DNA from: Minisyncoccia bacterium
Lineage (GTDB): Bacteria; Patescibacteriota; Minisyncoccia; Phycocordibacterales; GWA1-40-21
Assembly (NCBI GenBank): GCA_049287185.1
Contig: JBAQFI010000012.1
Span: 166,179-230,178 of the forward strand
Direction of reading: 5' to 3'
Length of the DNA: 64,000 nucleotides
In this document: in pieces, positions 12,970-63,867 of the stretch
Layout of the letters: each line of letters starts with the position of its first letter
Position numbering within the stretch: the stretch's first letter is position 1
The notes under the pieces: model-generated
Seen by the model: the letters and a program-made list of their open reading frames with translations, nothing else
The model's database searches: none
Told to the model about the DNA's origin: nothing
Made by a program: the position numbers and the translations under genes

Positions 12970-13034
12970 ATTTACCCGGTAAAGTTTTGACTAGTTAAAA
13001 ATCGTAGATTTTTCAGTCAAAATTTTTGCGGGTT
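12970..13034. repeat. MITE-like module family C (tttacccggtaaagttttgac ... gtcaaaatttttgcgggttg), imperfect inverted termini
   Basis: same module in opposite orientation at 21008-21073; termini reused at 47776-47808 and 52823-52903. Confidence 0.55.
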
Positions 13035-20955: not shown

Positions 20956-21007
20956 ATTATAGCAAATATGCTAAGATATTTAAACAGCTAATAATTATTA
21001 GATTTAA

Positions 21008-21073
21008 CCCACCCGCAAAAATTTTGACTGAAAAATCTCCGATTTTTAACTAGACAAAACTTTATCGGGCAAG
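21008..21073. repeat. MITE-like module family C, reverse orientation relative to 12970-13034, ends 4 nt before the yqeY-like start codon
   Basis: about 90 percent identical over about 60 bp. Confidence 0.55.
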
Positions 21074-27637: not shown

Positions 27638-27666
27638 TATTTTTTAATATTTAATTTGTTGTATTT

Positions 27667-27738
27667 GTCATTCCCGCGCAGGCGGGAATCCAGGTCTTTC
27701 TTTTAATTTTTCTGGATTCCCGCCTGCGCGGGAATGAC
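27667..27738. repeat. IR-A family element, canonical form: gtcattcccgcgcaggcgggaatccag - 18 bp - ctggattcccgcctgcgcgggaatgac, inside the cop operon
   Basis: perfect inverted arms each containing an 8 bp GC hairpin. Confidence 0.65.
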
Positions 27739-27764
27739 AGAGGATAATTTATAGTTAGTAATTA

Positions 27765-47767: not shown

Positions 47768-47802
47768 ATGTTTGATTTACCCGGTAAAGTCGACAATTCT
47801 GA

Positions 47803-47835
47803 TTGTCGTCCCCGCGCAGGCGGGGATCCAGTCAG
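47803..47835. repeat. solo IR-A-variant arm (gattgtcgtccccgcgcaggcggggatccagtc) preceded by gacaattctgattgtc palindrome and TTTACCCGGTAAA palindrome just upstream of the frr start
   Basis: same composite upstream of murA at 52823-52903. Confidence 0.5.
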
Positions 47836-48953: not shown

Positions 48954-49760
48954 TTACGCCAATCTAGGTAAAATAATCGCAATATACTCCAAAATAATCT
49001 TAAATGATGACGAGGGATCCTCTGAATAGCGGCAATTTTTTTCTAACTCTGTTAGCCATGACAGATTTTCTTTGGTCTGTTTTTTGTCTTTAACTTTTTG
49101 GAAACAAAGTTTAAGTAATTGTCGTAAAAATTCAGAAATATCCCCCCTCGAAATTTCCTCGTCAGTTCTAGCAGATAGAATTTCACCAACTATTTTTAAG
49201 CGGTCAGCGATACTGCCAGCTAAAAATTCAGATTCATTAAACAAACTGGCACCCTCTTTAAAGGCTGGAATTTCTTCATTCACATCAATAATGACTAAAC
49301 GCGATGAAACTGTCGGTAACAAACGACTTGCGGTCGGTAAAATCAAAAAAATTTTGGTATCTGCTGTCGGTTCTTCAAAAAATTTTAACAAGGAATTTTG
49401 GGCATTAATGTGAATGTCATCAGCCATAATGACTATCACTTTGTTTTTGGCTTGTACTGGAAAACTCTGAGCCGGTAAAATTATCTCTTCTAAAATAGTA
49501 TTGTAATTTGGTTTACCTTCGGGATGAAGTTTTAGTAAGTCATATTCTCGTAAAGAAAAATCCGGATGACCAGTGGTATCAAAATCTAGTTTTTCCAATA
49601 GTTCGCTCTTTAATTCAGTTAAAATAGTTTGTTTGTCCCCCACTAAACAATAAGCGTGATGAGAAAAATCACAGTTTAGTTTTGTAATATTTTTTTTCTG
49701 AGATTTTGCAGACATGGAGAGATTATAACATGAACAAATTATGTTTCTCCAGTCTGTCAT
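48954..49760 (-). CDS. holB: DNA polymerase III delta-prime-like clamp-loader subunit (degenerate P-loop, LPTVSSR sensor region); likely starts at internal Met about 49715
   Basis: AAA+ clamp loader box motifs (FEEP, T.FIL). Confidence 0.65.
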   Translation of the reverse strand: MTDWRNIICSCYNLSMSAKSQKKNITKLNCDFSHHAYCLVGDKQTILTELKSELLEKLDFDTTGHPDFSLREYDLLKLHPEGKPNYNTILEEIILPAQSFPVQAKNKVIVIMADDIHINAQNSLLKFFEEPTADTKIFLILPTASRLLPTVSSRLVIIDVNEEIPAFKEGASLFNESEFLAGSIADRLKIVGEILSARTDEEISRGDISEFLRQLLKLCFQKVKDKKQTKENLSWLTELEKNCRYSEDPSSSFKIILEYIAIILPRLA

Positions 49761-49892
49761 TCCCGCGCAGGCGGGAATCCAGAAATAATAATCAATATTA
49801 ATAAAAACTGACTTTCCGTTGTGACCTAATTTTCTTGAGCGTAGCGATTAGAAAATGGAAATGCCCTTGTGGTACGCGGGAATGACAGAGGA
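49757..49892. repeat. IR-A family element with long internal segment
   Basis: left arm perfect, right arm partial. Confidence 0.55.
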
Positions 49893-49978: not shown

Positions 49979-50992
49979 TTACTTTTTACTTATAATACTT
50001 CTCTTATAGACATCTAAGTGTTCCAGTGCAATACCGGTCCCCTTAGCTACACAATACAAGGCCTCTTCGGCCAGAATAGCCTTAACACCTGTACGACGAA
50101 ATACCAGTTCCGGTAAATTACGCAATTGGGATGAACCACCGGTCATAATAATTCCACGATCAATAATATCAGAAGCCAATTCTGGAGGAGTTTCCTGTAA
50201 AACATCTTTGATAGCTTTAATCATGTCCTTAAGCTCACGGCTAATAGCTTTGACAATTTCATTGGTTTTAATTTCGGCAGAACGAGGCAAACCAGAAATA
50301 AAATCTCGGCCTTTGATAGTCATTTGTAATTCTTCTTCGAGTGGTACAGCCGAACCAATTTTAATTTTAATTTCCTCTGAAGTTTGGTCACCAATTGCTA
50401 GATTAAAAGTTTTCTTAATATAATCAGCGATAGCATAGTCAATCTTGTTCCCAGCACATTTAACAGAAGTGGAGGAGACAATACCACCGAGAGAAATCAC
50501 TGCTACGTCAGTTGTTCCACCACCGATGTCCACCACCATATGTCCGGCTGGTTCATAAATTGGAATACCGGCACCAATTGCAGCGAGAATCGGTTCCTTC
50601 ACGACGTAAGCATTTTTAGCTCCGGCCTTAATAGCGGCCTCAATGACTGCCCGACGTTCAGTAGAAGAAACTCCCGCTGGTACAGAAATCATGACATCTG
50701 GTTTAAACAAACTCCACTTACCTAGAGCTTTATTTATAAAATAGCGAAGCATCGCTTCGGTCACGCGATAGTCGGCGATTACACCATCTTTCATCGGACG
50801 ATAAGCAATAATATTGTCAGGGGTTCTACCAATCATTAATTTGGCTTCATTACCAACAGCCAAAATTTTATTATCTTGTTCGGAAACTGCCACTACAGAA
50901 GGTTCAAACAAAACTACACCCTTGCCAGGTAAAAAAACTAGGGTATTAGCTGTTCCTAAGTCAATTCCAATTCGTTTAGTAAAAATGGACAT
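49979..50992 (-). CDS. second MreB/Mbl-like actin homolog
   Basis: GIDLGTANTL and DIGGGTTD motifs. Confidence 0.9.
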   Translation of the reverse strand: MSIFTKRIGIDLGTANTLVFLPGKGVVLFEPSVVAVSEQDNKILAVGNEAKLMIGRTPDNIIAYRPMKDGVIADYRVTEAMLRYFINKALGKWSLFKPDVMISVPAGVSSTERRAVIEAAIKAGAKNAYVVKEPILAAIGAGIPIYEPAGHMVVDIGGGTTDVAVISLGGIVSSTSVKCAGNKIDYAIADYIKKTFNLAIGDQTSEEIKIKIGSAVPLEEELQMTIKGRDFISGLPRSAEIKTNEIVKAISRELKDMIKAIKDVLQETPPELASDIIDRGIIMTGGSSQLRNLPELVFRRTGVKAILAEEALYCVAKGTGIALEHLDVYKRSIISKK

Positions 50993-51079
50993 AATTTTTT
51001 AGCAATATTTGATAATCAGAGTATAGAGGTTTTTAAATAAATTTACAAGTTTGAATACATGAATGACTTTTATCTTTTA

Positions 51080-51160
51080 TCTGTCATTCCCGCGCAGGCG
51101 GGAATCCAGGATTAGATCAAAATAAAATTTCTGGATTCCCGCCTGCGCGGGAATGACAAG
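51080..51160. repeat. IR-A family element, canonical two-arm form
   Basis: near-identical to 27667-27738. Confidence 0.65.
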
Positions 51161-51302
51161 AAAGAATAGCAGAAATGCAGTCATCGTCTTATTATTCCTC
51201 ATAATGATGATATTTGGTAAAAAACATTATCATTGACATAGTTCAGGGTTTCTAGTTAACTGTATCTAGAAACAAGAACACTAAAAAAAGGATACTTAAT
51301 AT

Positions 51303-51434
51303 ATGAGTAAGAAAAGGAAAAAATTCAGACAGGAAAAAACACTGACTGAATGTCCAAAATGCTTAGTAAAATGGACTTCTGAATTAGAGAAAATAATCAA
51401 ATGGAAAAGTATTTGCTGTAACTGTAGAAAATGA
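51303..51434 (+). CDS. candidate 43-aa lysine-rich zinc-ribbon protein (CPKC ... CCNC)
   Basis: manual ORF below track threshold; AAGGAT upstream. Confidence 0.3.
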   Translation: MSKKRKKFRQEKTLTECPKCLVKWTSELEKIIKWKSICCNCRK

Positions 51435-51473
51435 CACAAATAAAAAATTTGATAACTAAAAAAAGGAGGATTT

Positions 51474-51773
51474 ATGAGTATCAGAATCTCTGAAGTAAAG
51501 CCGTCCGAAAAACTTGTAACAGAAGAAATTGGGAGAAGTAAGGATAACAAGGCTGTCGTTTTGAAAATAAACGGCGAAATAATTGTCCTCAAAAGTTCCC
51601 GGTTCAAGTTCAGTGCTCCTGAAGAAGGACCGCCGAATATTCTCTCAAAGAAAGAAATCCAGGAATACAAGAAAAAAAGCGATGCGAGTAAAAGTCCTGC
51701 TTGCCTTGCCCAAGAAAGAAAAGACGACAGAAAAAGATGCAAACTCTGGAAAGAGGGCGAAAAATATCAGTGA
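51474..51773 (+). CDS. hypothetical 99-aa protein with strong AAGGAGG RBS
   Basis: RBS and terminator at 51791-51820. Confidence 0.5.
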   Translation: MSIRISEVKPSEKLVTEEIGRSKDNKAVVLKINGEIIVLKSSRFKFSAPEEGPPNILSKKEIQEYKKKSDASKSPACLAQERKDDRKRCKLWKEGEKYQ

Positions 51774-51790
51774 TAATCATTATCACAAAC

Positions 51791-51820
51791 AAGACGCACT
51801 GAAAAGTGCGTCTTTTATTA
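51791..51820 (+). terminator. terminator aagacgcact-gaaa-agtgcgtctt + T-run
   Basis: seen directly. Confidence 0.7.
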
Positions 51821-51917
51821 TATGAGTATAAAAAAAGACGTACCCGGAGGTAACGTCTTATGAAGCATCAGTCCAAAGATAATTCGGACTGAAAAAGAAA
51901 GAACTAATCTAAAGAGT

Positions 51918-52078
51918 GGAGCTCCTTACTTATTAGGTCGACACACAGTTCAACGCCGGAATGTAATTGGTTGCAGTACAGTCTCACCCGGCTTGGTGGG
52001 ATTTCTTGTTCTCGGGACATTTTCCCCGCAAGAAATTTATCTTGACTTGCCAATACATTATTCCTAGTAAGGAGCTCC
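51918..52078. ncRNA. candidate structured RNA/TIR-bounded unit 1 (closing helix GGAGCUCCUUACU / AGUAAGGAGCUCC, 161 nt)
   Basis: 13 bp perfect terminal complementarity; no credible ORF; flanked by hairpin terminators. Confidence 0.3.
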
Positions 52079-52167
52079 GGGGCTATCATATCATCTAATA
52101 AAAAATTCGCAAATTAAAAACATACCACGTGGTATGTTTAAAAAAAGAAAGAACTAATCTGAAGAAT

Positions 52168-52373
52168 GGAGCTCTTTGTTAAAATGATCGCCGAGCCACA
52201 GGCTAATCATAAATGCATTTGGAGTTTGTATCGCCTATCCCTCTATTGGTGGGATTCTGTGGCATTGTCCCTATTGGGTAGCCATTCGCACACGAGAAAG
52301 GAATAATTCCATCCCGCGAAATAAATACGCGATTATCGGCTAGCCAAATACATTTTTCCTAACAAAGAGCTCC
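52168..52373. ncRNA. candidate structured RNA/TIR-bounded unit 2 (closing helix GGAGCUCUUUGUU / AACAAAGAGCUCC, 206 nt); 5' flank about 30 nt identical to unit 1
   Basis: compensatory change in terminal helix relative to unit 1. Confidence 0.3.
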
Positions 52374-52415
52374 AAAAAGAATACTACACCCGTAAATAAT
52401 TTTGTCAAAAATTAA

Positions 52416-52657
52416 GTAGAACTCTTCGTCGGGCACACAAACCAGATGGTTGTGATTGTGAAATCAAAATTGTGCTGGTGACATCGAGCAAATCCTCTCA
52501 TTGCCCCTAAGGAGATGCTGGATTAACAAAAGATTAACTTTCGAACCACTTCCTCCCGCGCGTCAATTGCCTTGGTGGGCCATTATCTCACCAACTAGCT
52601 GATACGACTAATGCCCGACACAACCCAAAATTTTCACTTAACCCAACGAAGAGCTAC
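52416..52657. ncRNA. candidate structured RNA/TIR-bounded unit 3 (closing helix GUAGAACUCUUCGU / ACGAAGAGCUAC, 242 nt)
   Basis: third variant of terminal helix; followed by strong terminator. Confidence 0.25.
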
Positions 52658-52687
52658 AAAGAATATTATCATCACAGGTTATTTTGT

Positions 52688-52731
52688 AAAGACATCGAGA
52701 CAGAGTGTCTCGATGTCTTTATTTTTCTTTG
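52688..52731 (+). terminator. strong terminator aaagacatcgagaca-gag-tgtctcgatgtcttt + T-run
   Basis: 15 bp stem. Confidence 0.75.
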
Positions 52732-52740
52732 TTTAATACT

Positions 52741-52770
52741 AAATACTGTATACTAGATACTATATACTTT
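52741..52770. repeat. heptad direct repeats (ATACTNN)x4
   Basis: same motif as 16835 and 19841. Confidence 0.5.
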
Positions 52771-52792
52771 TCTGGCTTCTTCATAGCATATG

Positions 52793-52801
52793 TGCTATAA
52801 T
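52793..52801 (+). promoter_or_regulatory. extended -10 TGCTATAAT upstream of HTH-murA
   Basis: TGn-TATAAT. Confidence 0.4.
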
Positions 52802-52822
52802 AAAAAATATATAAATTTAATC

Positions 52823-52903
52823 AACCCACAAAAATTGACAATTCAGATTGTCATCCCCGTGAAGACGGGGATCCAGTCTTAATCAAAACTTTACCGGGTA
52901 AAA
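52823..52903. repeat. family C module termini (caacccacaaaaattgac ... tcaaaactttaccgggtaaa) with an IR-A-variant arm (52845-52878) in the middle; ends 2 nt before the murA start
   Basis: aligned against 12970-13034 and 47776-47835. Confidence 0.5.
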
Positions 52904-52905
52904 AT

Positions 52906-54411
52906 ATGGATAATTTAAATCAAATCGGAAAACTAATTTCTACCTTAAGGCAACAAAAAGGCCTAACTCAGGAACAATTTGCTCAAAAATTAAATACCAC
53001 TCAAAGCGCTATTGCTCGCATTGAAAATGGTGAACAAAATCTAACTACTGAAATGATTTCCAAAATCAGCGAAACTCTAGAAAATAGTTTAGTTTGTGTC
53101 GCTGATGGAGCTATAAATATTGAAATTCACGGTGGTAAAAAACTGGCCGGAGAAATAATTACTAGAACATCCAAAAACGGAGCGGTGGGTCTCCTCTGTG
53201 CTTCCCTACTCAACAAAGGCAAAACTACTTTAAAAAATGTACCAAAGATTGAAGAGGTATATCGTATTATTGAAGTTCTAATTAGTATTGGTGTCAGCAT
53301 CAAATGGGTAAATAATGATTTGGAAATAAAAGTCCCAGCCAAATTATCTTTGAGTAAAATCAATCGGGACTCGGCTATTAAAACTCGCAGTATCATAATG
53401 TTTTTTGGCCCACTAATTCACGAATTTAAAAAATTTCGTTTACCTCGTAGTGGTGGCTGTAAACTTGGTGCTCGATCTATTCAGCCTCACATCTACGCAC
53501 TAGAGGAACTCGGGGTAAAAATTGAAACTAAAGAAAAATATTATGAAATCACTCATAGCGGTTTAAACAAAAATAGAGAAATAATTCTTTATGAGGCTGG
53601 TGACACCGTGACGGAAAACGCTATTATGGCCGCCGCTCGCTTACCCGGCACAACTACTATCAAATACGCCTCCGCCAATTATATGGGTCAGGACCTGTGC
53701 TTCTTTTTGGAAAAGCTAGGTGTAAAAATTCAGGGTATTGGCACCACTACTATCATTGTGGAGGGTAAGGAAAAAATTAACGAAGACATCATTTATTATC
53801 TTGGGGAAGATCCGATTGATAGTATGTTTTTTATTTCTGTCGCAGCCACCACCAATTCTAAAATGAAAATCACTCGTTGTCCGATTAACTTCCTAGAAAT
53901 GGAGTTACTCAAACTAGAAAAAATGGGTTTAAAATTTAAGAAATCAAAAACTTATAAATCTTTAAATGAAAGACTGGACTTAGTTGATATTCAAATTTTT
54001 CCGTCAAAACTCGTTGCCTTGGAAGATAAAATTGAAGCCCATCCTTATCCAGCCATTAATATTGATAACCTACCTTTCTTTGCCGTGATTGCCACCCAAG
54101 CTCAAGGCCAAACTTTTATCCACGACTGGGTTTATGAAAAACGCGCCATCTATTACACTGAGCTAAATAAGCTCGGTGCAGATACCCTTCTAGCTGACCC
54201 TCACAGATTTTATGTGAATGGTAAGACCACTCTAAAACCTGCGGAAATAATCTGCCCGCCAGCTCTCCGTCCAGCGGCCATAATTTTAATTGGTATGCTC
54301 GCCGCCAAAGGACGCTCAGTTTTGCGAAATATCTATAGTATAAATCGCGGTTATGAAGATATTACTAAAAGATTGAATGACATTGGCGCCGATATTCGTA
54401 TTTTAAGATAG
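52906..54411 (+). CDS. murA: UDP-N-acetylglucosamine 1-carboxyvinyltransferase with an N-terminal XRE-family HTH domain (fusion)
   Basis: HTH LRQQKGLTQEQFA...SAIARIENG; MurA GGKKLAGEI, catalytic Cys loop RSGGCKLGARS, C-terminal RGYEDI. Confidence 0.85.
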   Translation: MDNLNQIGKLISTLRQQKGLTQEQFAQKLNTTQSAIARIENGEQNLTTEMISKISETLENSLVCVADGAINIEIHGGKKLAGEIITRTSKNGAVGLLCASLLNKGKTTLKNVPKIEEVYRIIEVLISIGVSIKWVNNDLEIKVPAKLSLSKINRDSAIKTRSIIMFFGPLIHEFKKFRLPRSGGCKLGARSIQPHIYALEELGVKIETKEKYYEITHSGLNKNREIILYEAGDTVTENAIMAAARLPGTTTIKYASANYMGQDLCFFLEKLGVKIQGIGTTTIIVEGKEKINEDIIYYLGEDPIDSMFFISVAATTNSKMKITRCPINFLEMELLKLEKMGLKFKKSKTYKSLNERLDLVDIQIFPSKLVALEDKIEAHPYPAINIDNLPFFAVIATQAQGQTFIHDWVYEKRAIYYTELNKLGADTLLADPHRFYVNGKTTLKPAEIICPPALRPAAIILIGMLAAKGRSVLRNIYSINRGYEDITKRLNDIGADIRILR

Positions 54412-54417
54412 TTTTTT

Positions 54418-54606
54418 CTGTCATTCCCGCGCAGGTTGAAATTTGGGATGGGACCCAAATGAAAGACCTTGAGCGTTTTGTCTTCAAAATGTGAAAGGTG
54501 TACTGCTCCTGTAAGGAGAGAAATTCCAGTCCTTCTATGTTAAAACAATTTACGATTCCTAGATTCCCGCCTGCGCGGGAATGACAACACGAATAACAGG
54601 TTGAAA
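54418..54606. repeat. IR-A family element with left arm interrupted after gcgcag by about 115 bp and duplicated caggttgaaattt / tttttctgtcatt flanks (nested or rearranged copy)
   Basis: right arm intact at 54552-54580. Confidence 0.45.
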
Positions 54607-54640
54607 TTTAGTCATTTTTCTGTCATTATAATAAGAGCGT

Positions 54641-54818
54641 GTTTACAATCTAACCGCCATTAAACATAACAATCGGCTTGCTCGTTCAAATCTTCAAATT
54701 TAGGCTACAAAATAAGTGTTTTCTCCTCAGCGTATCTCGATATGCTTCGAAGAAAACCCATATTTTTCGCTCAAAATTTGAAAATTTGTTCCGAACATTA
54801 GATTGTAAGCACGCTCTA
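54641..54818. repeat. 19 bp inverted repeat pair (agagcgtgtttacaatcta / tagattgtaagcacgctct) bracketing about 140 bp, ending 2 nt before the priA start
   Basis: seen directly. Confidence 0.4.
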
Positions 54819-54820
54819 CA

Positions 54821-56737
54821 ATGAAACTCATCGGCATTATCCCCATTTCAAGAGGCATTGCCAAGGAAAAACTGTCGTATTTTTCGACCGAGGACTTTCC
54901 TATTGGTTCTATTGTCTATGTCTCTCTGCGCAGTAAAAACATTCCTGGTTTAGTTGTTTCCAGCCAGGATGCTCTAGAAGAAAAATCCAGTATCAAGAAA
55001 CTATCATTTACTATTAAAAAAGTCAGTAAGAAACCACCAGTAGAATTGTTTCTACCAAATTTTATTAAAACCTGTCAGGAAGAGGCTCGCTATCTAGCCA
55101 CCACGACTGGTGCTGTACTTTATTCGGTTATGCCGAGTGGTATTTTAGAAAATTTAGATAAAATTGAAAAAACAGAATTAACTGTAAAAAGAAAAAATGA
55201 AGTCGGTGAAAAATTTGTAGTGCAAAGCGATGACGAGGAAAGATATTCTAATTACAAAAGTATCATTCGTGAAGAATTTGCCAAAGGCTATTCAGTTTTC
55301 TTTTGTCTCCCAACAATTCAAGAAACCAAAAAAGCTGTTAGTTTACTTTCCAAAGGTATAGAAACTTACACTTTTGTCTTACATAGTGGCCTGACAAAAA
55401 AGGAAATTCTGAAGACCTGGAACAAAATCATGGCGGAAAAGCACTCCGTCCTAGTAGTTATGACTGGCTCATTCCTTTCTCTACCTCGTCCTGATATTGG
55501 AACCATTATTATTGACCGTGAAAGTTCCCGCTCCTACAAAAGCCAACATCGACCATTTCTAGACATTCGTTGTTTCGCTGAGAAACTAGCCTTAAACTAT
55601 AACGTTCGTCTGGTTCTCGGTGATATTTTATTACGAACTGAGACCATCTGGCGCTATAAGAATAATGAGTTTTTTGAATTATTTCCGCTCAAGTTTCGCT
55701 CTCTTTCCCTCTCTAGTCAAGAAATTATTGATATGTGTCCAAAGCCAGTTGAACAGGACTTTGTTGAAGAAAAAGATAAGAAAAAAATTGAGTTCAAAAT
55801 AATTTCTGATGACTTAGTAAATTTAATAAAAAATAATCAAGACGACAGTGAACATCTGTTTATTTTCTCAGCACGTCGTGGTCTTCATCCAACTACTCTT
55901 TGTGCTGATTGTGGCACGATTGTCACCTGTCATAATTGTAAATCACCAATAGTTCTTCACACAGCTAGTAAAGGTAATTTTTTCCTTTGTCATCGTTGCG
56001 GTGAACGGAGAAGCGCCTCAGAGAAATGTTTTAAATGTGATAGCTGGCGTTTAGCGACACTAGGCATTGGTTCAGAACTTATAGAAAAAGAAATTCAAAA
56101 AATTTTTCCCGATATGAAAATTTTCAGATTAGATGCCGACAATGCTGACTCCCACAAGAAAGCCCTGCAGATTGCCGAGAAATTTTATTCTTCTCCGGGT
56201 TCAATTTTAATTGGTACAGAAATGTCCCTACCATACATTTACGAAAAGATTCAAAACTCAGCCGTTATATCTATGGATGCTTTCTTTTCCCTACCAGACT
56301 TTCGCATTAATGAAAGAATAATTAACATCATATTAAAGATAAAATCCTTTACCAGCAAGAGATTTATTCTTCAGACTAGAAAAGCACAGGCTAAAATCTG
56401 GGATTATGCTGTCCGTGGTAACCTGGCAGATTTTTATCGTGATGAAATTGGCGATCGCCAGATGTTAAGCTACCCCCCATATTCAACTTTGATCAAAATT
56501 AGTTTATTAGGAAATAAAGATGTCGTAGTTGGAGAAATGGAAAAACTACAAAAAGAAATTGAGCCACATATTATTGATATTTTTCCGGCCTTTATTCCAA
56601 GCAAAGCTGGAAAATATCAGATTCATGGACTCATAAAAGTTAAAGGTGATGACTGGGTGGATGAAGCCTTGCTAGAAAAAATTCAGAATTTACCACCAAT
56701 ATTTAACGTAAATGTTAACCCAGAAAGTCTGCTCTAG
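54821..56737 (+). CDS. priA: primosomal protein N' (PriA) homolog with degenerate Walker A and Walker B (DRES) but intact 3'BD and Cys-rich region
   Basis: aligns to PriA around VLHSGL and IIIDRESSRSYKSQ; CxxC x4 region; helicase C-domain. Confidence 0.75.
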   Translation: MKLIGIIPISRGIAKEKLSYFSTEDFPIGSIVYVSLRSKNIPGLVVSSQDALEEKSSIKKLSFTIKKVSKKPPVELFLPNFIKTCQEEARYLATTTGAVLYSVMPSGILENLDKIEKTELTVKRKNEVGEKFVVQSDDEERYSNYKSIIREEFAKGYSVFFCLPTIQETKKAVSLLSKGIETYTFVLHSGLTKKEILKTWNKIMAEKHSVLVVMTGSFLSLPRPDIGTIIIDRESSRSYKSQHRPFLDIRCFAEKLALNYNVRLVLGDILLRTETIWRYKNNEFFELFPLKFRSLSLSSQEIIDMCPKPVEQDFVEEKDKKKIEFKIISDDLVNLIKNNQDDSEHLFIFSARRGLHPTTLCADCGTIVTCHNCKSPIVLHTASKGNFFLCHRCGERRSASEKCFKCDSWRLATLGIGSELIEKEIQKIFPDMKIFRLDADNADSHKKALQIAEKFYSSPGSILIGTEMSLPYIYEKIQNSAVISMDAFFSLPDFRINERIINIILKIKSFTSKRFILQTRKAQAKIWDYAVRGNLADFYRDEIGDRQMLSYPPYSTLIKISLLGNKDVVVGEMEKLQKEIEPHIIDIFPAFIPSKAGKYQIHGLIKVKGDDWVDEALLEKIQNLPPIFNVNVNPESLL

Positions 56738-62026: not shown

Positions 62027-62799
62027 ATATTTTAGATTAATAATAAAACTGCCTACTTCTACTTAAATAGATTTAAGATTAAAACTTCATAATATTTGAA
62101 TACGAAAAAAGCCCTATTTACCTCATAGTAGGAATCTTCACAGACCTACCATGAGCTAAACAGGGTTCTTTATGTGAAGATTTTGTTATATACACAAGAC
62201 TTTGAAATAGACGTAATTCAATAGAATTCGACCTTAGAAAGCTTTAAAACTTAAATGAGCAACCGAAATATACATATTCATATTAATAAAGTAATTCTAA
62301 CATAGTCCCAAAAAGTCATCTTAATATCTGAAAGATATTAAATAAAAAATGAAAATAACCTTATAATATAGGGGTTTTCTTATAAAATGTCTGATGTAAC
62401 ACTAATTTAGTTTTGATAGTGGGGGGGGGCGTAGTTAAGTTTAACTTCCCTAGATATCCAAGAGACCCTAGGGTAACCAAACTATTTATGCTTCGGAAAA
62501 TTATTCTCAATTTCAAAATCGAGCGGTCAAAAAAATTTCTAAAATTTTCACAGAAAATAGGGTTGGCAAGGTTAAATAGAAAGGGTAGAATATAAGGGTC
62601 GGTAAAACTAAATATGTGACCTAACCTCCACAGAGTAATTTATGGAGCACGGTCTTAAATCGTAAGCCACAAACAACCTATCATTAGGGCGTGGCTTACG
62701 TTATACCGGGAAACTGGTATATGGCCGCAAGGCCTCCTAGTGGTAGGCTTTTTGTTGCTTATTTTTTAGGATTACTAATTAAAAACAAAAGAAAATTAA

Positions 62800-63867
62800 A
62801 TGAAAAATATCGGTAGTCTAATTTTGTTTTTAGTATTTTTATTCTTACCTATTACTTTTACATATGCCTACGGTGGATCATTAGGTACTTTTGGTAACCC
62901 ATTGCAGGTTGAGGTAGTACAAACACCATCACAAATACTAGACCAACAAAGAAGAGATATGGAATTGAGGTCTCAACAACAAAGCCAACAAAATTCTCTA
63001 AATTCTGCATTACACCTGCAACAAGAACTGAAATTTTTGGAATTAAAACAACAAGTAAATGATCGCTTTAAGCCATTCCCTGGTCACCTACCTACACCTA
63101 ACTGTCAAAATGGCTATGTTTTAATGAATGGAAGCTGTATTACTTATAATCAATCATGTAATCTTCAATATCCCAATACTGTTTTTGTAAATTATAATGG
63201 CAATGGTGAAAGAGTCTGTAATTGTGCGAGTGGTTATCTCTGGAATAAACAAAAAACAGGCTGTATTCTAGATTACAATTTAATCTGTTCCGATAAATTT
63301 GGAGCAGGATTTACCTGGGATGGCACAATTAATAGTGCTGGTGGCCCAAATTGTTCATCAGCGGTAGAAAATAATAAGATCTGCGCTAAAGATTATGGAG
63401 AAAGAAGTATTTGGAATGGCAAAACAAATGAAAAAGGTGGATTAATTTGTGATTGTATGACTGGCTATCAATGGAATTCTAATCAAACATCTTGTATTAC
63501 TATTTCCAAACCTAAAACAATTTCTACCACCACAGTGATAAATGGTGGTAGGAGTTTAGGGATCTGCACAAACAATGCGACTAACTATCCGACTTGTGAT
63601 AGTAATGTAAAAATATCCTGTGATAAAATAGTTTTTGGAAAAATGACAAGTTTTGGTGTTATAACTAAGGATGAATGTAGTTTGGCCTGGAAGAAAGCAG
63701 TTGAAGCAAAGCAACAGGAAACAAAAATAGAAGAAAATATTCAAAAAGCAACAACTACTGATGCGCAGATTATAAGTAATTCAAGTAGTACTGTTTTAGT
63801 AACTAGTAGTTTAGTTCAAAAAAACGGTGGCATTTGGAAAGTCATTACAGGCTGGTTTGGTTTTTAA
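62800..63867 (+). CDS. secreted Cys-rich repeat protein (4 copies of C.C..GY.WN....C, Gln-rich linker, C-terminal hydrophobic tail)
   Basis: signal peptide and repeat pattern. Confidence 0.5.
   Translation: MKNIGSLILFLVFLFLPITFTYAYGGSLGTFGNPLQVEVVQTPSQILDQQRRDMELRSQQQSQQNSLNSALHLQQELKFLELKQQVNDRFKPFPGHLPTPNCQNGYVLMNGSCITYNQSCNLQYPNTVFVNYNGNGERVCNCASGYLWNKQKTGCILDYNLICSDKFGAGFTWDGTINSAGGPNCSSAVENNKICAKDYGERSIWNGKTNEKGGLICDCMTGYQWNSNQTSCITISKPKTISTTTVINGGRSLGICTNNATNYPTCDSNVKISCDKIVFGKMTSFGVITKDECSLAWKKAVEAKQQETKIEENIQKATTTDAQIISNSSSTVLVTSSLVQKNGGIWKVITGWFGF

Follow-up and report, generated by a model that had tools for sequence, protein, structure and literature searches.

The 64,000-nucleotide stretch of Minisyncoccia DNA analyzed here (hereafter, the window) contains on its forward strand, at positions 52906–54411, a gene encoding a 501-residue protein in which a helix-turn-helix (HTH) domain of the XRE/Cro-C1 type precedes the enzyme MurA (UDP-N-acetylglucosamine 1-carboxyvinyltransferase). 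The open reading frame (ORF) begins with ATG and runs in a single frame to its stop codon, as seen in both the ORF list and the sequence. The HTH domain comprises residues 4–62 (52915–53091) and matches the Pfam family HTH_3 over residues 13–61 with an E-value of 6.5e-15 (55.3 bits against a cutoff of 23). Its recognition helix, TTQSAIARIENG, spans residues 31–42 (52996–53031). A variable linker of low identity follows (residues 63–70; 53092–53115), which is only about eight residues long because the HTH ends near residue 62 and the first MurA strand starts near residue 71. The remainder of the chain, residues 71–501 (53116–54408), constitutes the MurA domain. A preliminary description of this DNA had already proposed an HTH_3 domain followed by a complete MurA, and the ORF list, Pfam, NCBIfam and the alignment of catalytic residues bear this out; the strings LRQQKGLTQEQFAQKLNTTQSAIARIENGEQ, RSGGCKLGARS and RGYEDI quoted there are all found in the protein.

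The enzyme part matches the Pfam family EPSP_synthase (PF00275) over residues 75–490 with an E-value of 3e-45, covering profile positions 2–417 of 417. It exceeds the cutoff of the NCBIfam MurA subfamily NF006873 (315 bits vs 297) and remains below that of the stricter MurA equivalog TIGR01072 (306 vs 393 bits), which identifies it as a divergent MurA, as typical of Patescibacteria; the score against the AroA family TIGR01356 is 71 bits for a cutoff of 287. The closest solved structures in a sequence search of the PDB are MurA enzymes (5u4h, E-value 1.4e-50). Residues K22/N23, R91, C115, R120, D305 and R397 of Escherichia coli MurA align with K90/N91, R161, C185, R190, D387 and R455, the codon of the catalytic Cys185 lying at 53458–53460. 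The catalytic residues are thus intact by alignment, and the protein is predicted to be a catalytically competent, functional enzyme. A cysteine rather than an aspartate at the position of C115 predicts sensitivity to fosfomycin.

An AlphaFold2 model built from 118 homologues has a predicted local distance difference test (pLDDT) value of 90.5 and a predicted template modeling score of 0.84. The HTH helices encompass residues 2–17, 22–28, 33–40 and 48–58 with pLDDT values of about 80–94; the linker is less confident (block pLDDT about 64), and the Cys loop, residues 184–189, is disordered. A Foldseek search superimposes the MurA body on more than 40 solved MurA chains with template modeling scores of 0.87–0.93, and none of the solved MurA enzymes matched by fold in the PDB bears an HTH. 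By sequence, the HTH matches HipB, C-proteins and the 434 repressor in the PDB.

The fusion is widespread. An identical protein is present in an NCBI metagenome-assembled genome labeled Minisyncoccia, on a 256-kb contig, and the best 120 matches among 5.8 billion proteins are all 500–515 residues long and contain both domains, at identities down to 66%; the source databases call them plain MurA. A profile-free comparison of residues 1–135 with 1.84 billion representatives at 50% identity returned 27 matches below 1e-30 and 276 below 1e-10, the junction-spanning ones reaching down to 39% identity. One genome per GTDB species was scanned with a junction-spanning N-terminal alignment as the query, which gave more than 599 matching stretches; the fusion was confirmed, uninterrupted, in at least 478 Patescibacteria genomes, each a species representative. 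Residues from about 1 to 137 are covered in one frame in the best 80 of these matches. The corresponding 80 loci (L001–L080) were fetched, of which 79 were usable for counts of upstream sites and 74 supplied full-length orthologues, and in tblastn searches a single high-scoring segment pair runs through both domains in all 80 unless the contig ends. The record labels include Paceibacterota, Parcubacteria, Taylorbacteria, Nomurabacteria, Doudnabacteria and one Saccharimonadales, and span Minisyncoccota, the Parcubacteria group and Ca. Doudnaibacteriota. The preliminary description had named a survey of related genomes as one way to check the fusion, and a frameshift or stop at the junction, or an HTH encoded by a separate upstream gene, as what would speak against it; the relatives examined display neither. 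A frameshift or an assembly artefact is excluded by the uninterrupted junction in the 80 loci, the 120 database matches and the at least 478 genomes. This distribution, far beyond chance or artefact, indicates that the fusion is real and ancient.

Both halves of the protein are constrained. In the 74 full-length orthologues, the HTH and MurA have mean pairwise identities of 0.64 and 0.69, and the linker one of 0.34; omega values in close pairs are 0.02–0.07 for the HTH and 0.02–0.05 for MurA. The HTH residues R15, Q22, Q33, S34, R38, E40, G42, Q44 and N45 are invariant in the 74 species, and K90, N91, R161, C185, R190, D387 and R455 of the enzyme are kept in all 74 fused orthologues. By these values, purifying selection acts on the HTH as strongly as on the enzyme, and the HTH is, hence, functional. 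A functionless relic of the fusion, or an artefact of assembly or annotation, might be suspected from two proteins, P0201, which is fused but has a degenerate HTH that has lost the QS..R recognition residues, and P0244, a close MurA relative without the HTH. Against such a view stand the omega of about 0.04 across at least 74 species, the hundreds of independent assemblies with the same junction and the conservation of a cognate palindrome, and we give it very little credence.

The alignment of the relatives' DNA 5' of the fusion gene reveals this palindrome, a near-perfect 16-bp element with the consensus ATAGCATATATGCTAT. In the window, the candidate operator ATAGCATATGTGCTAT at 52783–52798, a site without assigned strand, comes nearest to the consensus, with one mismatch; matches with up to three mismatches number two in the window, compared with 0.32 expected. 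In 61 of the 79 loci, a palindrome with up to two mismatches occurs in the 250 nucleotides preceding the fusion gene, with just two further matches in 612,400 bp. One of these two outlying matches lies 276 nucleotides 5' of the fusion gene in locus L025 and is probably its own operator. Under a relaxed definition (a CATATATG core with symmetric flanks), 71 of 79 loci contain the site, vs 2 of 1991 background windows. The association of the palindrome with this gene is, therefore, specific in these counts.

A promoter is embedded in the palindrome. Its right half overlaps an extended −10 element, TGcTATAAT, read from the sequence at 52793–52801 on the forward strand; the TG of the palindrome coincides with that of the extended −10, and 17 bp upstream of the −10 is a weak −35 element, TTG. 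In 60 of 68 loci the last three nucleotides of the palindrome together with the next three read TATNNT (TATAAT in 27, TATACT in 21). The final T of the −10 is kept on the murA side only, an asymmetry which indicates that the promoter faces murA and not the divergent mreB. Since the site takes up the −35/−10 spacer and reaches into the −10, it occupies a classical repressor position. Further upstream, a strong intrinsic terminator at 52686–52722 on the forward strand (17-bp stem, 3-nucleotide loop and T-run), the sole terminator-like site in 52400–54900, insulates the murA promoter from the upstream DNA. A second operator-like site, ATAGCAAATATGCTAA, was found at 20959–20974, between the divergent rmuC and yqeY genes and 4 nucleotides from the rmuC start. 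It has two mismatches and imperfect symmetry, and 4% of shuffled sequences yield two or more matches; the site is possibly a chance occurrence, or else a second target.

The palindrome could alternatively be bound by another factor, or be no more than a strong promoter of unusual symmetry, with the HTH serving in protein docking or in unrelated DNA tethering. The coincidence of the right half-site with TGnTATAAT means that RNA polymerase accounts for part of the conservation. The left half-site, which has no promoter function, is nevertheless conserved equally, at 1.2–2.0 bits per position, and it is the half that has decayed in the one non-fused relative examined: upstream of P0244 (L204, 1–360) the promoter half ATGCTATACT is kept and the left half-site is lost. 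Further XRE proteins use the same palindrome (see below), and a stand-alone paralogue encoded elsewhere in the genome could in principle bind it; no stand-alone HTH of this type is found, however, in the 64-kb window or in 612 kb of flanking DNA from relatives. The fused HTH is, moreover, invariant at its base-contacting positions, and residue 32 tracks the variant of the operator. We consider this explanation improbable.

The latter relationship is apparent when the helix and the site are compared across loci. Proteins with T32 and I39 are found with G.C-type sites (ATAGC...GCTAT) in 35 loci and with no T.A-type site, and proteins with S32 and M39 are found with T.A-type sites (ATATC...GATAT) in 12 loci and with no G.C-type site; intermediates are few. 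Residue 32 of the recognition helix thus co-varies with operator positions 4/13. Four further S32 proteins from other lineages, the pseudo-enzyme paralogues described below, are likewise encoded behind T.A operators.

A reverse search with the exact 18-mer TATAGCATATATGCTATA in 241 million metagenome records returned at least 120 loci (L081–L200). Among the 120 listed, the fusion gene adjoins the site in only about 8; the palindrome is therefore not unique to murA and represents the site of a wider XRE clade. An HTH ORF matching the profile of the fused domain lies within 1.5 kb of the site in 78 of the 120, compared with a background of one match in 867 kb, which comprises the 64-kb window, the 612 kb from relatives and those parts of the metagenome contigs that lie over 2.5 kb away from the motif. 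Two classes of stand-alone genes were found. The first consists of orphan XRE genes of about 97 residues, whose ATG stands at a fixed position on the edge of the palindrome in at least 24 loci. This ATG overlaps the last base of the palindrome, leaving no space for a leader or a Shine-Dalgarno sequence (for instance in L098, 362–666, and in L101, L152, L167 and L198), and the orphan transcripts may be leaderless and autoregulated. The second class consists of operons of a 115–129-residue toxin of the Gp49/HigB family (PF05973; E-values 4e-22 and 1e-24) followed by an XRE antitoxin, with the TATAGCATATATGCTATA palindrome at the head of the operon.

The recognition helices of the stand-alone proteins, T[KT]QS[VA]I[SA]R[LI]E.G, match the TTQSAIARIE.G of the fused domain, and one Gp49-associated XRE antitoxin shares 48% identity and 78% similarity with the fused HTH, including an identical TTQS.IARIENGEQN segment. 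The palindrome travels with this HTH clade through three architectures, and this linkage is the strongest computational evidence that an HTH of this type recognizes the site. It also suggests that the fusion arose by the recruitment of an autoregulated antitoxin-type repressor together with its operator. A toxin–antitoxin reading of the murA locus itself is ruled out by the absence of a toxin gene, with priA on the 3' side and non-coding DNA and the terminator on the 5' side; no Gp49-like ORF lies near murA, and no further HTH of the fused type is present in the 64-kb window. HTH-MurA thus has an HTH and an operator of the antitoxin type but, with no toxin partner adjacent, is not the antitoxin of a toxin–antitoxin module. 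Strong matches to the fused HTH were also obtained in P0124 (1002 residues), P0157 (703 residues) and P0190 (2059 residues), which contain 8–11 tandem XRE HTH repeats.

Four paralogues retain the regulatory half of the protein and have lost the catalytic one. P0180 (L201, 6001–7467), P0151 (L202, 8001–9503), P0135 (L205, 3498–5003) and P0171 (L206, 1474–2952) have a good HTH but neither the Cys loop nor the residues equivalent to K22, R120, D305 and R397, which have been substituted or lost by deletion. A T.A-type palindrome immediately precedes each of the four genes. In L202/L203, a divergent gap of 60 bp contains TTGACA-N2-ATATCATATATGATAT and separates a catalytically intact murA-murB pair on one side from the pseudo-enzyme, ddl and a Mur ligase gene on the other. 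A small ORF, a Mur ligase gene and a genuine murA are divergent from the pseudo-enzyme and another Mur ligase gene in L205, and murB, a RelA/SpoT-like gene and the pseudo-enzyme follow each other in L201; beside the pseudo-enzyme of L206, no gene of peptidoglycan synthesis could be recognized. These dead paralogues keep the HTH and the operator, in three cases next to the expected target genes, and the regulatory half can thus outlast catalysis. Dedicated regulation is their probable role, with the MurA fold acting as a sensor or a scaffold, and their presence in peptidoglycan clusters makes a sensor role for the fold plausible.

We consider it likely that the fusion protein combines MurA activity with an antitoxin-derived HTH that binds the palindrome in its own promoter, so that the committed step of wall synthesis is under negative autoregulation. 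Catalysis of the first committed step toward peptidoglycan precursors would reside in the C-terminal 430 residues, and the N-terminal 62 residues would form an XRE-type HTH that most likely derives from a Gp49(HigB)-XRE antitoxin/repressor. Two HTH domains, presumably from a dimer, would bind ATAGCATATGTGCTAT. The occupied operator is expected to exclude RNA polymerase, given its location in the −35/−10 spacer and its overlap with the extended −10. The enzyme would, in this manner, repress its own transcription and hold the MurA concentration at a set point. Autoregulation had been suggested in the preliminary description, and the idea gains strong comparative support from the conserved palindrome at the gene's own promoter, to which the HTH is likely bound.

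Several points weigh against this mechanism. We infer the DNA binding, the oligomeric state, the sign of regulation and the regulon alike; MurA is usually monomeric, whereas the palindrome needs two HTH domains. No recognizable site is present in 8 of the 79 loci under the relaxed definition, and in this genome the operator is 107 nucleotides from the ATG, with inserted repeat elements in the leader. Because the right half-site is an extended −10 element as well, promoter function by itself explains part of the palindrome's conservation. Phylogeny confounds the co-variation, since the S32/M39 set belongs mostly to one Doudnabacteria-like clade, and exceptions occur in L016 and L018 (S32 with a G.C site) and in L014 (a hybrid site). 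The operator scan, finally, covered the 64-kb window and, for each relative, about 8 kb.

The proposed autoregulation might be extended to a trigger enzyme gated by metabolites, in which the same operator is used and the MurA body is the sensor. The open or closed state set by UDP-N-acetylglucosamine (UDP-GlcNAc), phosphoenolpyruvate or UDP-N-acetylmuramic acid (UDP-MurNAc) would control HTH dimerization or DNA affinity, and transcription of murA, and possibly of mreB where it is adjacent, would follow the precursor flux and not the protein level alone. Sensing of the UDP-GlcNAc/phosphoenolpyruvate flux had also been considered in the preliminary description. The paralogues that have lost K22, the Cys115 loop, R120, D305 and R397 still have a MurA fold, an HTH and an operator, and three of the four reside within peptidoglycan-precursor clusters, which fits a non-catalytic regulatory role of the fold; the same pseudo-enzymes have, on the other hand, lost most substrate-contacting residues, and may therefore fail to bind these ligands and serve only as a scaffold for dimers. 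The 8-residue linker requires the HTH to be close to the enzyme body, and MurA structures with tightly bound UDP-MurNAc are among the fold matches (3su9, 3swd and 6q03). The divergent upstream neighbor is mreB in 60 of the 80 loci, often 100–250 nucleotides away, and the operator is consequently often situated in a shared mreB/murA control region. The asymmetry of the −10 nevertheless directs the promoter toward murA and not mreB, and in this genome mreB is 1.8 kb away, past the terminator. Such gating is a tentative proposal, which we hold to be distinctly less probable than not.

Downstream of HTH-murA, priA is found in 49 and def in 24 of the 80 loci, and the order mreB (divergent), HTH-murA, priA, def is kept across most Paceibacteria-like loci. 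The window has priA downstream of murA, and mreB at 49979–50992 on the reverse strand, 1.8 kb from the operator and beyond the terminator. The gap between mreB and murA is usually 100–700 nucleotides in relatives. Here, the region 50993–52782 contains no convincing ORF, no Rfam match at E-values up to 1 and no conservation, only repeat elements; its end in a forward-strand terminator hints at an unannotated forward-strand transcript or a decayed insertion. A string resembling 16S ribosomal RNA at about 52560–52600 was rejected as a ribosomal RNA fragment, as no convincing Rfam family was found at gathering thresholds or at E-values up to 1. Elsewhere in the window, a LOOT RNA (Rfam RF03000; 73 bits, gathering score 46) is located at 62618–62735 on the forward strand, just upstream of the ORF at 62800–63867.

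The preliminary description had pointed to a different palindrome upstream of murA, quoted as TTTACCCGGTAAA. The sequence at this position, just before the ATG, is actually TTTACCGGGTAAA (52890–52902), and it belongs to a leader cassette, AAACTTTACCGGGTAAA, at 52886–52902 on the forward strand. The cassette, AAACTTTAYCGGGYAA, recurs at a minimum of four unrelated genes in the window (murA, yqeY, rplI and frr), 4–9 nucleotides before their ATGs. Exact copies precede the ATGs of yqeY (21057–21069, forward strand) and rplI (12975–12987, reverse strand) by 8–9 nucleotides, and a near copy precedes frr (47780–47792, reverse strand); the yqeY and rplI copies have about 60 nucleotides in common, including a promoter-like TTGACT...TTAACT. 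Its copies at unrelated genes and its absence from the murA leaders of relatives, where it is not conserved 5' of the fusion gene, rule out TTTACCGGGTAAA as the operator. The cassette may be a genome-specific promoter/leader or a substitute for a ribosome-binding site.

A palindromic GC-hairpin repeat of about 80 nucleotides, resembling repetitive extragenic palindromic sequences or miniature inverted-repeat transposable elements, is scattered in intergenic regions here and in other Patescibacteria. Copies were found in the window at 51075–51160, 27660–27741, 49753–49786, 47803–47831, 54412–54464 and 54555–54615, as well as in loci L007, L008, L017, L025 and L033. The repeat flanks murA on both sides and yields a spurious ORF at 51077–51202 ('...IPAQAGIQ...RLRGNDR'). 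The murA leader contains a related hairpin at 52853–52872 and a TTGACAATTCAGATTGTCA palindrome at 52835–52853.

MurA catalyzes the committed step of cell-wall synthesis and is the target of fosfomycin. To our knowledge, the control of its level is understood in few model organisms only, and there through proteolysis or partner proteins. An essential central enzyme here appears to bear its own repressor, in hundreds of species of the candidate phyla radiation, a major uncultivated group poor in transcription factors. The proposed cis-trans pair is concrete, a 62-residue domain and a 16-bp site, and can be studied in vitro or in an E. coli host, with no need to culture the organisms themselves. 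The locus also indicates a route by which a toxin–antitoxin repressor and its operator may enter housekeeping regulation, and the paralogues point to transitions from enzyme to pseudo-enzyme regulator inside peptidoglycan gene clusters. Because HTH-MurA proteins are currently named plain MurA, there is an annotation problem as well. A bolder and rather doubtful reading is that a one-protein loop operates in much of Patescibacteria, with a ligand-gated MurA on ATAGCATATATGCTAT and dead duplicates as metabolite sensor-repressors. In some lineages, duplication would then have left one copy as a pure enzyme and the other as a dead MurA-fold repressor of a murA-murB/ddl/mur-ligase cluster. If true, this reading would provide the first transcription factor–operator pair, and the first circuit that senses a metabolite, to be defined for wall synthesis in this uncultivated group with few regulators.

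Among 8 million full texts, no description was found of an HTH-MurA fusion, of MurA as a trigger enzyme or of this operator. The only trace is a table in PMC9394408, in which HTH_3 is a 'promiscuous' domain that co-occurs with PF00275 in 218 proteins, a pairing left uninterpreted. The arrangement proposed for HTH-MurA, in which a single chain joins an N-terminal DNA-binding domain to an enzyme and a predicted operator lies on the promoter of its own pathway, corresponds to that of several established systems. Enzyme-repressors with their own DNA-binding domain include BirA (biotin ligase and bio repressor), NadR (an HTH with a nicotinamide mononucleotide adenylyltransferase) and PutA (a ribbon-helix-helix domain with proline dehydrogenase). 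The logic is likewise comparable, as the concentration or state of the enzyme feeds back on transcription. Unlike these three, HTH-MurA contains a peptidoglycan enzyme and an antitoxin-type XRE/Cro-C1 domain.

HTH-MurA shares its HTH type and palindrome with the HigA-like antitoxins of Gp49/HigB (PF05973) toxins and with the orphans of about 97 residues, and autoregulation is the classical behavior of XRE-family antitoxins. By contrast with those antitoxins, it has no toxin partner, lacks their N-terminal extension of about 40 residues and continues at its C-terminus into an enzyme. The fused HTH also matches the BzdR/PRK08154-type family with an E-value of 1.3e-5, in which an N-terminal XRE HTH is placed on an enzyme-fold domain. 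In BzdR, this domain is shikimate-kinase-like and purely a sensor, which makes the family the best analogue of P0135, P0151, P0171 and P0180; the HTH-MurA of the window, unlike BzdR, keeps every catalytic residue and is, therefore, an enzyme first. MurA itself is controlled by ClpCP- and ReoM-ReoY-dependent proteolysis in Firmicutes, by the MurA-LpxC interaction in Pseudomonas and by UDP-MurNAc feedback inhibition. These mechanisms act on the same first committed step, but post-translationally and through separate partners or metabolites, whereas the control proposed here would be transcriptional and reside within the enzyme.

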